Below are positions 3,155 through 23,393 of a stretch of DNA of 41,075 nt, piece after piece. Positions within the stretch are counted from its first letter, which is position 1. Every line of letters starts with the position of its first letter. The stretch comes from a virus. Taxonomy: Duplodnaviria; Heunggongvirae; Uroviricota; Caudoviricetes. Position numbers and translations under genes: made by a program. The stretch is taken from IMG/VR virus record IMGVR_UViG_2917393062_000004, one strand, 5' to 3'. The notes under the pieces are model-generated. The model was given only the letters and a program-made list of their open reading frames with translations. It was not told the origin of the DNA and searched no databases.

Positions 3155-3516
3155 TATGCTCCAGCCTCCGGTGCTTTTGGCATTACTGCCCAGTGAGTGA
3201 TATTGACGTTTTCAAGGTCCCCGACCTGAAATGTCCACTGCCATTCTCCGGTTTCTTTTTGTCCCCAGGTGTACCAGAGAGAACGCCAGCCAATTAGCCA
3301 GCCTTCTCCGTTAGCATCGAATAACAAAACACTTTCATTTGCTGGTGGCAGTTCAGTTGACACTGGTATTACTTTGTTTTCCTGTGCTGCACATTTAGCT
3401 TCAAGCGCATCGAATTTACGCACCAGGTATTCAGCATCTGTTTCATTTACTTTCAGATCTCGCGGTACACATCTCCCACGAAGAAACCCTTCCATTTCGA
3501 AAACATTCATGCGCAT
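3154..3516 (-). CDS. yfdS: DUF551-like phage protein, YfdS-like (120 aa)
   Basis: 120-aa ORF; Trp-rich C-terminal region typical of DUF551 as recalled; position downstream of yfdR homolog. Confidence 0.5.
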   Translation of the reverse strand: MRMNVFEMEGFLRGRCVPRDLKVNETDAEYLVRKFDALEAKCAAQENKVIPVSTELPPANESVLLFDANGEGWLIGWRSLWYTWGQKETGEWQWTFQVGDLENVNITHWAVMPKAPEAGA

Positions 3517-4995: not shown

Positions 4996-5060
4996 AATAA
5001 GTCCTCACTATATAAAGATATTCAGTGATGAGATAAATAATCAGTTAATTAAAAACGATA

Positions 5061-5423
5061 TTAACGACCTGCTGCGCGGAGTTTTCCGTCAGGTTCACCG
5101 GCAAGAGTCAGTAACTGTCCCTGGTCTTCCTGCAGAATAGTCAGGCGACCACCGCGATTGACATACATCGGCGTTTCGGTGGTGTCTTCTTCGGAAATTT
5201 TCCCGCGGTTAGTCGGGCGAACATATGAGAGTTTGTGTTTGATTTTCACACGGTTCTCATCAAATGGTTCGATTTCCAGGTTGAGTGAGACCTTACCTTT
5301 GGTTTTCGTGTTCATCACACCGGAAGCGACTTCACTGAGAACTGCGCCGATTTTGGTTTCAAATACGCCGCCGTCCAGCTCCCCGATAAATGCCTGCACA
5401 TCAGTACTGCGTTCGCTAGCCAT
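5061..5423 (-). CDS. yfdP: Hypothetical phage protein, YfdP-like (120 aa; start at MASERST)
   Basis: Strong RBS GAGGAG 7 nt before the internal ATG; the longer 226-aa ORF upstream extension runs through GC-rich structured DNA and is probably not coding. Confidence 0.6.
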   Translation of the reverse strand: MASERSTDVQAFIGELDGGVFETKIGAVLSEVASGVMNTKTKGKVSLNLEIEPFDENRVKIKHKLSYVRPTNRGKISEEDTTETPMYVNRGGRLTILQEDQGQLLTLAGEPDGKLRAAGR

Positions 5424-5464
5424 TTTGCTGCTCCTCATCATATCGACCCTGCAAGGCCGATTAG

Positions 5465-5660
5465 TTTCTCCACAAAACAGAGAAGAACACCTGCGGTGGC
5501 AGCCGCCCGGATGGATTGGGTTATGAGCCCGTCGTCCGGTGATGCTCTTCTCTGTTTTGTAAAAAGGACGGTACCAGCCGGAAGCAAGGGTACAAGCTGG
5601 TACCGCCAGGACTACACACAGCATAAAGTTGTGGTGCCGGGTGCCTCCCGGTGCCTGGCG
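5465..5660. other. GC-rich structured non-coding block with long inverted repeats (candidate ncRNA or regulatory RNA structure)
   Basis: 15-bp perfect inverted repeat ACAAAACAGAGAAGA / TCTTCTCTGTTTTGT (about 5472-5486 and 5548-5562) plus 4 more pairing bp; second 9-bp stem GGTACCAGC/GCTGGTACC (about 5568-5605); CCGGG-TGCCT-CCCGG hairpin (about 5638-5652). Confidence 0.3.
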
Positions 5661-5860
5661 AAGGTTGCACACCAGGCGGGTGGGTATCCACAGAAGGTCG
5701 ACTGTCAGCCTCAACCTTAACCCGCGTGCGCTGAGCCGCATTCACCACAACGCTAAGGATTCTCTTTGGTTGAAAATACTTAGCTGTTATGTGCCTGTCT
5801 TTTCACCACTTCAGGCTCGGTGGTATCCTTTTAAGCCCGTATACATAAAAGGAAAATCAA

Positions 5861-6106
5861 ATGACTTTTGATGAAAAAGAACTTGATAATGCAATTAATA
5901 AAATCATCGTAACGTCGCTCTTTTCCTGTCTCAGCGACACTCAGCAGAAACAGTTCTACGAATCGGCTTTCAACATGATCGAGCGTTGTTGTTTCTGCGA
6001 TGCCGACGAGTTACCTGAAAAAATCAGGAAACAGTTGGCTGATGCTCTTCGAGTGCGACTTTCTGACCAATTTTCTGAAATGTGCTCTCCGAATTTGGAC
6101 AAATAG
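5861..6106 (+). CDS. Hypothetical small protein (81 aa), immunity-region cargo candidate
   Basis: ORF with AAGGA-type RBS and protein-like codon usage; opposite orientation to the early-left operon; 3' end overlaps the convergent ORF. Confidence 0.35.
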   Translation: MTFDEKELDNAINKIIVTSLFSCLSDTQQKQFYESAFNMIERCCFCDADELPEKIRKQLADALRVRLSDQFSEMCSPNLDK

Positions 6107-6299
6107 AAAAAGGCCATTTCCATTCAGGGTCTGATGGAAATACTTCAGCCTGTTCCAAAGCACGGCGTAAAGAGAACACAACTCCAGCCATAATCTGATG
6201 TTTCCCATTGGTCCAGCTATCGCCGCTCTGATCTACAGGGGCGGCTATGTCGTATGACCAAACGACTTCACAGTTATTGTTTAAAATCTGGACTTTCAT
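6024..6299 (-). CDS. Hypothetical early-left protein (91 aa; start at MKVQIL), first gene downstream of pL/OL
   Basis: AGGTG RBS 6 nt before ATG; occupies the position of N in lambda but lacks an Arg-rich N-terminus. Confidence 0.4.
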   Translation of the reverse strand: MKVQILNNNCEVVWSYDIAAPVDQSGDSWTNGKHQIMAGVVFSLRRALEQAEVFPSDPEWKWPFSICPNSESTFQKIGQKVALEEHQPTVS

Positions 6300-6506
6300 T
6301 TCATACACCTGCTTTAACATGAGTGCCTAGTGGCACAACATGACTCAACGAATCATCCTGGACTTCATATGCCCCAGGCGGCTACTTCGTGGGCGTCCTG
6401 CCTGTTCGTTTTTGACATTTACTGACTGCTTACGACACATGCACCGTGTTGCAACCAGATTTTGTTGTAATCCTGTAGTTGGTCTGGAACAAAAGATAAA
6501 ATTAAA

Positions 6507-6543
6507 TTGCGATATATGCAAGTGGTATTTGCGTGATATGCAA
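6507..6543. promoter_or_regulatory. OL-like operators (two 15-bp palindromes TTGCGATATATGCAA and TTGCGTGATATGCAA) with presumed pL
   Basis: Palindromic TTGC-N7-GCAA sites, centres about 22 bp apart, same motif as the sites next to cro/cI. Confidence 0.55.
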
Positions 6544-6554
6544 ATTGATAGGTA

Positions 6555-6578
6555 ATAAAAAGCCACCTTTCGGTGGCC
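6555..6578 (-). terminator. Intrinsic terminator downstream of cI
   Basis: Minus-strand hairpin GCCACC-GAAA-GGTGGC followed by U-run, about 20 nt after the cI stop. Confidence 0.6.
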
Positions 6579-6596: not shown

Positions 6597-7289
6597 TTAA
6601 TTATGTCTCTTAAGGGTTTGCGACTGACTGATTAAGACCTTTCCAAAGACCATGAATCGGTGTTCGTTTTCGCTAGTAATTCCCCATTCACGGTAAATCT
6701 GGTTATCAGAAATCACCAGCAGTTTGTCAGGAATCATTTGAAGTCTTTTAACGTATATTTTGTCATCAAAACCAAAGACATATATACCATCACCATCAAA
6801 CTGATTGATGCTGACATCAACGAAGATGAGATCTCCTGGCTCAATGGTTGGACACATACTGTCCCCACGAACGTTGATAACTTTGATGTGATTGGCTGGT
6901 CGTCCGCCGAACATTGATACAGCATTATCAGTTCTGTATTCGATGGCATGAATCACATCAATGACATCACCGCCCTGGATAAGGCCATTTCCCGCACTGG
7001 CACTGATATCCAGCATTTCAATACGGAACACATCCTTCACCTGCGCAACATCCTCATCATTACTGTTTTTATATACAGTATTACTTTTGTGGGCAGAGGT
7101 AAAGAGATCAGCAATATCAACACCTAAGCTCTTGGCAATATTACTCAGTGTTTGTTCGGTAAATTGTTTTTGCTTACCCGTTTCTAAGCGCGAGATGTTC
7201 GCCGCATCTACTCCTATTGCTTCAGCGAGATCGGCGATTTTCATGTTCTTCGCTTGGCGAAGTTGTCTGACTCGGTTTCCTATGTTCAT
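6597..7289 (-). CDS. CI-type prophage repressor (N-terminal XRE HTH, C-terminal S24/LexA-like autopeptidase)
   Basis: HTH motif (IADLAEAIGVDAANISRLETG); C-terminal region with GDSM Ser motif and downstream Lys (KRLQ); divergent from cro across an operator region; no SD before ATG (possibly leaderless). Confidence 0.9.
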   Translation of the reverse strand: MNIGNRVRQLRQAKNMKIADLAEAIGVDAANISRLETGKQKQFTEQTLSNIAKSLGVDIADLFTSAHKSNTVYKNSNDEDVAQVKDVFRIEMLDISASAGNGLIQGGDVIDVIHAIEYRTDNAVSMFGGRPANHIKVINVRGDSMCPTIEPGDLIFVDVSINQFDGDGIYVFGFDDKIYVKRLQMIPDKLLVISDNQIYREWGITSENEHRFMVFGKVLISQSQTLKRHN

Positions 7290-7309: not shown

Positions 7310-7372
7310 TTGCGTGATAAGCAAATCAACTTGCGCAAAATAATTGCGTGAAATAACATGCATAACGCGCAA
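7310..7372. promoter_or_regulatory. OR-like operator cluster with presumed PRM/PR promoters
   Basis: Three TTGCG/CGCAA-type sites (TTGCGTGATAAGCAA at about 7310-7324, TTGCGCAA at about 7331, ATGCATAACGCGCAA at about 7358-7372) with about 24-bp spacing between the divergent cI and cro starts. Confidence 0.6.
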
Positions 7373-22152: not shown

Positions 22153-23393
22153 TGTTCTTTTCGGGATTATTTCAACGAAAAAGTGACGCACCGGTGACCA
22201 CGCCAGCAGAGCTGGCGGATGCTATCGGGTTGTCCTACGACACCTATACCGGAAAGCAGATCAGCAGCCAGCGGGCCATGCGACTGACGGCGGTTTTTTC
22301 CTGTGTCAGGGTGCTGGCGGAGTCGGTCGGGATGTTGCCCTGCAACCTGTATCACCTGAACGGCAGCCTGAAGCAGAGAGCCACTGGCGAACGTCTGCAT
22401 AAGCTGATCTCCACGCATCCCAATGGCTATATGACGCCGCAGGAGTTCTGGGAGCTGGTGGTCACCTGTCTGTGCCTGCGGGGAAACTTTTACGCCTACA
22501 AAGTGAAAGCATTTGGCGAAGTGGCTGAACTGCTGCCCGTCGATCCCGGCTGTGTGGTACCGAAGCTTAACAGTAGCTGGGAGCCGGTCTATCAGGTCAC
22601 ATTCCCGGATGGCTCCACGGATGTACTGAGCCAGGAGGATATCTGGCATGTGCGCACGCTGACGCTGGACGGACTGGTGGGGCTGAATCCCATCGCCTAT
22701 GCCCGCGAGGCAATATCGCTGGCGGCAGCGACCGAAGAGCACGGGGCCAGACTGTTCAGCAATGGCGCGGTGACGTCGGGTGTGTTGCGTACAGAGCAGA
22801 CGCTGTCAGATCAGGCTTATGAGCGCCTGAAGAAAGATTTTGAGGAGCGTCACACCGGGCTTGGCAATGCTCACCGCCCGATGATCCTTGAGATGGGGCT
22901 GGACTGGAAGTCGATGGCGCTGAACGCCGAGGACAGCCAGTTCCTGGAAACCCGCAAGTTTCAGCTTGAAGAAATCTGTCGTCTGTTCCGGGTGCCGTTG
23001 CACATGGTGCAGAACACCGATCGCGCCACCTTCAACAATATCGAAGAGCTGGGGCTGGGATTTATCAACTATTCACTGGTGCCGTATCTGACCCGCATCG
23101 AACAGCGGATCAACACCGGACTGGTACGAAAAAGTAAGCAGGGCGTTTATTACGCCAAATTTAACGCCGGGGCGTTACTGCGCGGGGATATGAAGTCCCG
23201 TTTTGAAGCCTACGCCACCGGGATCAACTGGGGAATTTACTCTCCCAATGACTGCCGCGACCTGGAAGATATGAATCCACGTCCCGGTGGTGATGTCTAT
23301 CTCACACCGATGAACATGACCACGAAACCCTCCGATGGCAGTAAAGCCGGTAAGCAGAAGGATAACGCCAATGCAGACGAAACAACGTCTTGA
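22152..23393 (+). CDS. Portal protein (HK97 family)
   Basis: 413-aa ORF, GTG start with GGAGG RBS; position after TerL and before prohead protease. Confidence 0.85.
   Translation: MFFSGLFQRKSDAPVTTPAELADAIGLSYDTYTGKQISSQRAMRLTAVFSCVRVLAESVGMLPCNLYHLNGSLKQRATGERLHKLISTHPNGYMTPQEFWELVVTCLCLRGNFYAYKVKAFGEVAELLPVDPGCVVPKLNSSWEPVYQVTFPDGSTDVLSQEDIWHVRTLTLDGLVGLNPIAYAREAISLAAATEEHGARLFSNGAVTSGVLRTEQTLSDQAYERLKKDFEERHTGLGNAHRPMILEMGLDWKSMALNAEDSQFLETRKFQLEEICRLFRVPLHMVQNTDRATFNNIEELGLGFINYSLVPYLTRIEQRINTGLVRKSKQGVYYAKFNAGALLRGDMKSRFEAYATGINWGIYSPNDCRDLEDMNPRPGGDVYLTPMNMTTKPSDGSKAGKQKDNANADETTS

Follow-up and report, generated by a model that had tools for sequence, protein, structure and literature searches.

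The block of DNA analyzed here (positions 5424-5860) lies in an SfV-like prophage carried on the virus record IMGVR_UViG_2917393062_000004, a stretch of 41,075 nucleotides (nt) that we call the window; across 5400-5880, the sequence is 99.6% identical to phage SfV. A tRNA-Thr gene at 1369-1444, found with both Rfam and ARAGORN, adjoins the prophage integration site. The immunity region consists of a cI-type repressor gene, its terminator, and two operator copies at OL that match one copy at OR (Table 1). This cI/OL layout implies that leftward early transcription runs on the minus strand, and the positions of OL and of the cI terminator place the block within the leftward operon. The order on the minus strand after the leftward promoter (PL) is orf33 (6024-6320), the block, yfdP, yfdQ, yfdR, and yfdS; the location given in the initial annotation, with the cI/OL immunity region on one side and yfdP-yfdS on the other, is thus correct. 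The block is a conserved noncoding RNA region of this prophage. It is divided into separable modules, each of them read on the minus strand, rather than forming a single element. It probably serves as a leader in which a small RNA, a terminator or insulator, and a processing hairpin precede the yfdP-yfdS genes of the early-left operon. DNA matching 5400-5880 was detected in 2865 of 5426 complete Escherichia coli genomes, over at least 80% of the length in 1654 of these. The block is common, yet no RNA is annotated there in RefSeq, where part of it is labeled a frameshifted pseudogene. The CPS-53 prophage of E. coli K-12, considered as a further carrier, was rejected: its homology to the window starts only ~20 nt before the yfdP start codon, and the element is absent.

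The initial annotation had described this DNA as unusually dense in long stems and had proposed a structured regulatory RNA, assigning no strand. All three stems that it singled out are present, namely the perfect 15-bp core of inverted repeat I1, the stem of I7 with its 10 perfect pairs (12 on the minus strand when one G-U pair is counted), and a third, GC-rich hairpin. Folding exceeded chance and favored the minus strand: 5424-5860 folds at -181.7 kcal/mol on the minus strand, compared with -142.3 +/- 5.8 for shuffled sequences (z = -6.75), and at -159.5 kcal/mol on the plus strand (z = -3.44). When the block was folded module by module, the minus strand was better every time. The modular layout was derived from alignment with the phages ST64B, 118970_sal3, F1055, phiES15, Kp4866-6, and mEp460 and with 120 viral contigs. 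The combination of parts varies among phages: the interior of module B is swapped between the same GUUGUGG and CCACAAC arms, B is sometimes absent, and in some phages (locus L075) module D directly follows the early promoter as the first element. Homology between phages breaks at module borders, and many phages share only 5400-5608.

Module B is a five-helix junction that contains, in addition to its closing helix, a D-arm-like hairpin (UGCG-GCUCAG-CGCA), a long-range helix (CGGG/CCCG), and two further hairpins (CCUGGUG...CGCCAGG and CCGGG-AGGCA-CCCGG). The Rfam scan that had been recommended for this region returned tRNA-Thr alone for the whole window at gathering thresholds; a relaxed scan was needed to reveal a sub-threshold, full-length match to STnc100 (RF02076; 41.4 bits, E = 3.1e-7, model positions 1-206 of 206) at 5558-5773 on the minus strand. 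Sub-threshold matches of 34-41 bits were also obtained in ST64B, sal3, phiES15, and the Qin prophage of K-12. We built a covariance model, R1, on five window-type core sequences, with the structure taken from independent minimum free energy (MFE) folds. R1 scored 151 bits on module B of the window, found full-length relatives in 26 loci, and matched phage 933W at 22803-22927 over its full length (39.7 bits, E = 2.3e-8), where the Rfam STnc100 model scores 207.7 bits. MAFFT combined with RNAalifold aligned the center of divergent cores poorly, and a covariance-model alignment was used instead. In this alignment, 96% of the cells are paired, compared with at most 51% with slid partners; 19 of the 29 pairs changed on both sides, and none of 500 shuffles reached the observed value on any of five measures. 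The alignment leans toward the model, but two measures that rarely give false positives, pair count and pair type, were likewise extreme. Given the Rfam and R1 matches and the covariation, module B is a genuine structured RNA domain representing a divergent branch of the STnc100 family.

Both RNAs are prophage borne and consist of a multi-helix core with a long closing helix, followed by a linker and an intrinsic terminator; in the window, these correspond to module B, the linker, and module C, in this order (Table 1). The motifs UGGUGAAU and CACCGGGAGGCACCCGGCACCA are common to both, and the match is significant in both directions. The differences lie in the second hairpin and the central domain, which are unlike, and in genomic position: STnc100 and PasD are late-region RNAs, encoded downstream of both Q and stx2 and close to the lysis genes (the 933W copy is 75 nt after stxB2), whereas the copy in the window is early-left. 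PasD1 and PasD2 have been reported as relatives of STnc100, and PasD has been seen by RIL-seq. STnc100 copies are transcribed in lysogens of enterohemorrhagic E. coli, as judged by RNA sequencing (RNA-seq), and one was confirmed by Northern blot (PMC5331693). PasB was considered as the same RNA and rejected, being located in structural-gene operons.

The single-stranded linker that follows B is kept, as UGCUGUGUG(U/A)AGUC(U/C)U, in loci from E. coli, Salmonella, Klebsiella, Cronobacter, and Mixta, even where B differs or is absent (e.g., loci L079 and L142). The linker is a candidate seed region of a short, DicF-sized RNA; a search for linker targets inside the window matched only the linker itself. 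Module C is a putative DicF-like intrinsic terminator (folding z = -4.5). All 49 sequence variants found upstream of D contain a stable hairpin followed by 5 to 7 U, with compensating stem sequences. The terminator consensus scan, which covers loops of 3-8 nt only, did not list module C, the loop of which is 17 nt long. The Rfam DicF model (RF00039) gave 15.9 bits (E = 2.3; cut-off, 48 bits) at 5566-5620, compared with 76.7 bits for true DicF; with this insignificant score, module C only resembles DicF and is not a member of that family. The resemblance comprises a small RNA in a lambdoid early operon, a terminator hairpin beginning UGGCGGUA.CAG (the DicF hairpin starts UGGCGGUAUCAGUUU and module C starts UGGCGGUACCAGCUU), STnc100-like cassettes flanking dicF, and a long helix directly after the terminator. 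The order in K-12 Qin is ydfABC, a cassette of the F1055 type found in many E. coli prophages, dicF, an STnc100-like cassette, and dicB. DicF differs in its single-stranded 5' part, which is unlike the linker of the window, so that ftsZ targeting cannot be assumed. Qin also has no module D, the helix after dicF being the closing helix of a cassette. DicF arises in two ways: transcripts that terminate early are trimmed by RNase E, and those that read through are cleaved by RNase III, which yields a 72-nt form (PMC9438474). If the 5' end of this form is the same as that of the 53-nt form, its end would fall in the 17-bp extended closing helix after dicF; in the window, the equivalent position is occupied by the long stem of module D. 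The two structured cassettes flanking dicF in Qin (locus L131, 2740-2870 and 2953-3084) belong to the same superfamily as those described here and are both unannotated in K-12. The upstream one, designated type-2, occurs in many E. coli prophages but has no Rfam entry; the downstream one is STnc100-like (Rfam, 34.4 bits; R1, 65 bits).

Module B, the linker, and module C together would make up a small RNA of ~190 nt, the landmarks of which were taken from sRNA-17. The latter, from an mEp460-like prophage of E. coli K1 strain RS218, was determined as a 193-nt RNA by 5' and 3' rapid amplification of cDNA ends (RACE) and Northern blot, begins GTTGTGGTGAATGCGCAGGC and ends GGCTGGTACCGCTCTTTT in the supplementary alignment, and has no Rfam homologue according to its authors (PMC7719688). 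We mapped sRNA-17 on mEp460, where the stretch bounded by GTTGTGGTG... and ...CCGCTCTTTT measures exactly 193 nt and comprises the mEp460-type cassette, the linker, and module C; the same landmarks in the window run from 5751 to 5562, that is, 190 nt. By these sequence landmarks, the predicted RNA is the positional equivalent of sRNA-17, with the same ends. Its 5' end may lie upstream, near 5767-5773; the Rfam STnc100 alignment starts at 5773, upstream of 5751. The small RNA that was among the options raised initially is thus supported both by STnc100 homology and by a positional equivalent detected by RACE and Northern blot. The predicted RNA and sRNA-17 occupy the same slot upstream of D and yfdP, end at the GGCGGUACCAG... 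terminator, and share the first 13 nt (GUUGUGGUGAAUG); the terminator hairpin, module D, and the yfdP start are 96-97% identical to those of mEp460. The core interior, in contrast, is another sequence or cassette, R1 scoring only 24.4 bits on mEp460; BLAST identity to mEp460 ends at 5608, sRNA-17 is not matched across its 193 nt, and the linkers are unlike (CAGCCACUGCUUUGG against UGCUGUGUGUAGUCCUGG).

Replacement of sRNA-17 by a resistance cassette raised yfdP ~95-fold, with yfdR also up, and sRNA-17 has been reported to affect survival of E. coli K1 in blood (PMC7719688). The rise in yfdP fits with module C acting as a terminator that insulates yfdP. Instead of an effect in trans, its cause may be that the terminator was lost or that transcription read through from the inserted cassette. 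The small-RNA part of the block represents a new, unannotated variant of known prophage small RNAs. STnc100/PasD of the late region, sRNA-17, and DicF, which acts in cell division, were described separately and appear to be built from the same interchangeable parts.

Module D is a long hairpin with one conserved, initiator-tRNA-like arm and another arm (5493-5506) that is hypervariable in length. Its folding z scores are -8.1 for the minus strand and -5.4 for the plus strand. When the fold was imposed on 36 distinct sequences, 95.4% of the cells were paired, compared with at most 51% with slid partners, and 9 pairs changed on both sides (58 cells), a value reached by none of 500 shuffles. Covariation analysis, which the initial annotation had suggested as a check, therefore gave compensatory changes in two independent parts, B and D. 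The frequent G-U and U-G pairs of D are valid on the minus strand only (U-G occurs at one pair in 34 of the 36 sequences) and fix its strand as minus. D was identified in at least 120 viral contigs and, in a scan of one genome per species, in 15 Enterobacterales species of 11 genera (including Escherichia, Shigella, Citrobacter, Kosakonia, Enterobacter, Klebsiella, Buttiauxella, Pseudescherichia, Mixta, and Erwinia) as well as in two records with unexpected labels. These two, L138 (Chryseobacterium sp.) and L146 (a Geobacteraceae metagenome-assembled genome), carry a typical enterobacterial D and B core, and their labels likely stem from contamination or mis-binning. The genes that follow D belong to at least five families, including two yfdP families, an rdgC-like gene, yfdR, and yfdS; because the downstream gene varies, D belongs to the leader and not to yfdP. 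Neither Rfam 15 nor a limited literature search contained a description of module D, which thus is apparently undescribed. D, with a loop that looks like the initiator tRNA anticodon loop, is conserved from Escherichia to Erwinia and Mixta and lies at the head of the delayed-early genes. D was considered as a second intrinsic terminator and rejected, since its 3' arm keeps no U tract: the U-rich end, UGUUUUGU, is replaced by UGUGUUGUGU in variants of the Klebsiella and Enterobacter types.

Table 1. Positions of the modules and other features of the early-left block and its surroundings in the window
Feature	Positions	Strand	Description
cI-type repressor gene	6597-7289	minus	
cI terminator	6561-6578	minus	
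OL operators	6507-6545		two copies, matching one copy at OR (7310-7326)
AU-rich hairpin	5826-5853	minus	UCCUUUUA...UAAAAGGA; inverted repeat I11
Module A	5793-5823	minus	CCACC-GA-GCCUG-AA-GUGG-UGAAAAGA-CAGGC
Outer helix P0	5746-5791 (arms 5779-5791 / 5746-5757)	minus	CAUAAC-A-GCUAAG with CUUAGC-GUUGUG; from sequence and MFE fold
Module B	5628-5751	minus	five-helix junction; closing helix GUUGUGGUG/CACCACAAC
Third GC hairpin	5637-5651		CCGGG-AGGCA-CCCGG
Linker	5608-5627	minus	UUUAUGCUGUGUGUAGUCCU; single-stranded, conserved
Predicted small RNA, ~190 nt	5562-5751	minus	B + linker + C; landmarks from sRNA-17
Module C	5559-5607	minus	putative DicF-like intrinsic terminator; hairpin and U run also delimited as 5567-5607; 12-bp stem GGCGGUACCAGC/GCUGGUACCGUC, 17-nt loop, then CUUUUUAC
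I7 stem	5569-5578 / 5596-5605		CGGTACCAGC / GCTGGTACCG; 10 perfect pairs, 17-nt loop
Module D	5472-5560	minus	long hairpin; 20-bp stem opening into a three-way junction
I1 inverted repeat	5472-5496 / 5536-5560		arms of 25 nt, 84% complementary, 39 nt between
I1 perfect core	5472-5486 / 5546-5560		ACAAAACAGAGAAGA / TCTTCTCTGTTTTGT; 15 bp
Initiator-tRNA-like stem-loop	5518-5530	minus	GGG-CUCAUAA-CCC; look-alike of the initiator tRNA anticodon stem-loop
GGAGAAAC box	5464-5471	minus	near-invariant, directly 3' of D (alignment)
Module E hairpin	5444-5459	minus	CGGCC-UUGCAG-GGUCG; just upstream of the yfdP ribosome-binding site
yfdP Shine-Dalgarno sequence and start codon	5431-5436; 5421-5423	minus	GAGGAG; ORF (open reading frame) list, RefSeq/SfV annotation

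Taken as a leader, the block could operate as follows. In a lysogen, transcription begun upstream would stop at module C, freeing the small RNA and insulating yfdP and the later genes. The linker and terminator would act as a base-pairing RNA, similarly to DicF or STnc100, and the ~190-nt RNA would possibly be trimmed to a DicF-sized RNA of ~60-70 nt consisting of the linker and the hairpin. During early-left expression, when transcription from PL reads through, RNase III would cut D in its long stem, a cleavage that would detach the small RNA from the downstream mRNA and define the 5' end of the latter. RNase III processing hairpins are familiar from the T7 early mRNAs, the lambda N leader, and sib. 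D shares with these a stem of 20-25 bp, close to perfect, that lies between two functional units of an early phage transcript, and differs from them in its conserved three-way junction and invariant loop, which RNase III does not need. Expression of the ~190-nt RNA from the copy in the window, the efficiency of termination, and the targets are inferred, as are the cleavage of D by RNase III and its function. The processing structure mentioned in the initial annotation is plausible, by analogy with DicF.

Several observations weigh against this model. STnc100 falls short of its gathering cut-off of 47 bits, and the DicF score is insignificant. The expression evidence concerns other copies of the RNA rather than the variant in the window. 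The efficiency of the terminator is uncertain, its loop being 17 nt long and followed by only five U. No good sigma-70 promoter lies upstream; the best candidate has 8 of 12 matches and was unlisted by the promoter scan. The rise in yfdP on replacement of sRNA-17 may be read-through from the resistance cassette. Finally, the proposed mechanism leaves unaccounted the GGAGAAAC box, the recurrent UGCAG-loop hairpins, and the invariant loop of D; since this loop is not required for RNase III, part of the function of D is unexplained.

The invariant loop is the focus of a rival explanation that we consider unlikely, namely, that D acts through its initiator-tRNA-like arm, either as a decoy for an anticodon nuclease (VapC), the 30S P site and initiation factor 3 (IF3), or methionyl-tRNA synthetase (MetRS), or through pairing in cis with a start codon, by which translation of the next gene would be controlled. 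The known VapC targets and the role played by the G-C pairs are background to this idea. Compared with positions 29-42 of E. coli K-12 metZ, the arm shows 14 nt of exact identity (CGGGCTCATAACCC; 16 of 17 in a slightly longer span), which include three G-C pairs and the whole 7-nt loop. CUCAU was kept in 17 of 17 real D elements, from Escherichia to Erwinia, found with a search pattern that left the seven loop positions free, while the stems vary; furthermore, D comes first after the early promoter in some phages (L075). However, only the three G-C pairs and the loop are common to D and metZ, and the rest of the arm, which has internal loops, does not copy the tRNA stem. ARAGORN called no tRNA at the element (in the window it found only the tRNA-Thr, and in 20 related loci nothing), nor did Rfam in 5000-6400. 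U or C appears at loop positions 6-7 in some variants. A 14-mer match to some tRNA is not very rare in 41 kb; we estimate a chance of ~0.02 for this particular tRNA, and, the match being striking but short, tRNA mimicry is a minority reading. Pairing of the CUCAU of the D loop with an AUGAG at or near the downstream start was considered separately and rejected: AUGAG is present in two yfdP families only and absent from the rdgC-type and ST64B-type downstream genes.

A broader form of tRNA mimicry, in which the early-left leaders of many enterobacterial lambdoid phages would be arrays of tRNA-mimicking RNA modules, we regard as improbable. In their order of helices, the exchangeable cassettes, among them the cores of STnc100 and sRNA-17, correspond to a class II tRNA, with an acceptor-like closing helix, a D-like hairpin, a central arm, a long extra arm, and a T-like hairpin that abuts the closing helix. 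In such an array, D could be a decoy for a tRNA-fMet nuclease or a ligand of the P site, IF3, or MetRS. If this were true, STnc100, PasD, sRNA-17, and their relatives would be tRNA derived, and mimicry of tRNA would serve the phage at an early stage of infection. A leader hairpin that mimics a tRNA anticodon arm is known from the 5' leader of E. coli thrS, where it forms the operator. D is similarly a leader hairpin whose loop and upper stem look like an anticodon arm; it differs from the thrS operator in that the tRNA concerned is the initiator, the downstream gene varies and is not a synthetase, and there is no known partner. In locus L104, a cassette at ~3220-3344, located between GUUGUGG and CCACAAC arms, has tRNA-like D and T arms and an Rfam tRNA score of 28.7 bits (cut-off, 29). 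T-arm-like hairpins (CUGGUUCGAUUCCAG, GUCCGUUCAAUUCGGAC) are found between A and B in other leaders (L004, L005, L008, L012, L016, and L017). ARAGORN called no tRNA in L104 or in these other leaders.

Two further parts of the block, module A and the outer helix P0, bear on whether it controls transcription in cis, as a put- or nut-like antiterminator or as an attenuator with alternative pairings, which we judge quite improbable. Among the fetched loci, module A takes ~40 sequence forms, in which the linkers vary and CCAC/GUGG and GCCUG/CAGGC do not; its two interleaved helices of 4-5 bp could form a pseudoknot, a fold neither supported nor refuted by covariation because both stems are invariant. 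The pairing of P0 is kept in homologues with other sequences (e.g., GAUGAGAGCA/UGCUCUCAUC and GAUAAGAG/CUCUUAUC), and its 3' arm shares bases with the 5' arm of the helix that closes B, such that the two pairings compete for the same GUUGU bases. P0 also encloses the weak promoter-like site AAGACA, 17 nt, TATTTT (the 8-of-12 match mentioned above). The invariant, possibly pseudoknotted helices of A and the competing pairings, together with the placement of the block in the early-left operon upstream of delayed-early genes, are compatible with cis control, as is the lack of an evident N-like protein, the first ORF after PL having no arginine-rich motif. The put RNAs are ~70 nt long, form two stem-loops, and lie close to the early promoters, putL directly after PL and putR ~270 nt past the PR start (PMC9378689). 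Like put, the block is structured RNA of a lambdoid early operon in a phage without evident N, but it is similar neither in sequence nor in size and is out of place with respect to promoter and terminator: the block lies ~750 nt downstream of PL, its start being ~650 nt away and beyond orf33, and D comes after the terminator, not before it. HK022 put was rejected; BLAST with 7-nt words, motif searches, and local alignments revealed no similarity of HK022 put, or of any part of the HK022 genome, to the block or to the leader element next to PL. The antitermination structure envisaged initially thus finds no support here, and a much better candidate is present right after PL, at ~6338-6402.

This conserved RNA-like element, on the minus strand directly downstream of OL/PL, consists of ACGAACAGGCAGGACGCCCACGAAGUAGCCGCC, a CCUGG...CCAGG hairpin, and AUGAUUCG. 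Across 55 fetched loci, the operator/promoter sequences that it follows are of at least eight kinds, and the inner hairpin shows compensatory changes (CCUGG/CCAGG, CCGGU/ACCGG, and CCCGG/CCGGG). The element has the position of HK022 putL, yet no sequence similarity to HK022, and is a candidate antitermination leader for a phage without evident N. In many loci (e.g., L010, L027, L032, and L132), it is followed by a hairpin, GCGCCCUACAGGACGC, and then by AGCUCUUUAAAAAUC, which is similar to the boxA consensus of rrn and nut sites; this is absent from the version in the window.

It is very unlikely that the hairpins act as DNA, that is, as hot spots at which recombination exchanges modules among lambdoid phages. 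The breaks of homology at module borders, the different interiors between identical arms, and the variety of genes preceded by D all agree with such a role; however, the G-U pairs make the helices strand specific, which points to RNA, and homologous recombination is expected to produce joins at conserved functional RNA segments, so that the mosaicism needs no dedicated site. The recombination site suggested in the initial annotation is therefore supported loosely, by the mosaic junctions at module borders, and no further.

A decayed protein-coding gene, as implied by the RefSeq pseudogene call and by long open stretches in several frames, is scarcely credible, given that none of the four ORF translations of the block matched a Pfam family, the open frames shift between homologues, 1-nt insertions and deletions are tolerated, the lengths of the D arms vary by non-multiples of three bases, and the helix substitutions are compensatory. 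The initial view that the block holds no convincing ORF was thus upheld, and the degraded coding sequence that would have spoken against an RNA was not found. The call itself, a "frameshifted hypothetical protein" produced by the Prokaryotic Genome Annotation Pipeline (PGAP) at 5438-5748 on the minus strand (NZ_CP011915, locus ACJ74_RS26195), very likely reflects an error of annotation, by now propagated to many E. coli genomes, since none of the reading frames is conserved. A peptide encoded in the leader after D, with the start (A/G)UG-GAG-AAA, was also considered and rejected; the start is ACG in the Klebsiella type, and the peptides are not conserved.

In the MFE fold, the GGAGAAAC box pairs with the U run of the terminator. 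Small hairpins whose loops read (U)UGCAG or GUGCAG turn up repeatedly: in the variable arm of D, directly before the downstream ribosome-binding site (module E in the window), and, in some phages, as extra copies further downstream; besides the window (5444-5459 and 5493-5506), the loci concerned include L019, L031, and L075. (U)UGCAG-loop hairpins precede the downstream gene in most variants. These recurrent hairpins could be a protein-binding motif.

In the immunity region, a 17-bp operator-like sequence, TTGCGTGATATGCAAAT, and its variants are present in three copies that mark OL and OR. At the high-coordinate edge of the block, the AU-rich hairpin, labeled "putative terminator" in the SfV record, adjoins the start of a plus-strand ORF of 81 amino acids (5861-6106). 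This ORF is unannotated by PGAP and in the SfV record; its protein is conserved, with 59% identity in L079, where the DNA has diverged. The 3' end of the ORF overlaps convergently with the 3' end of orf33, which is likewise conserved.

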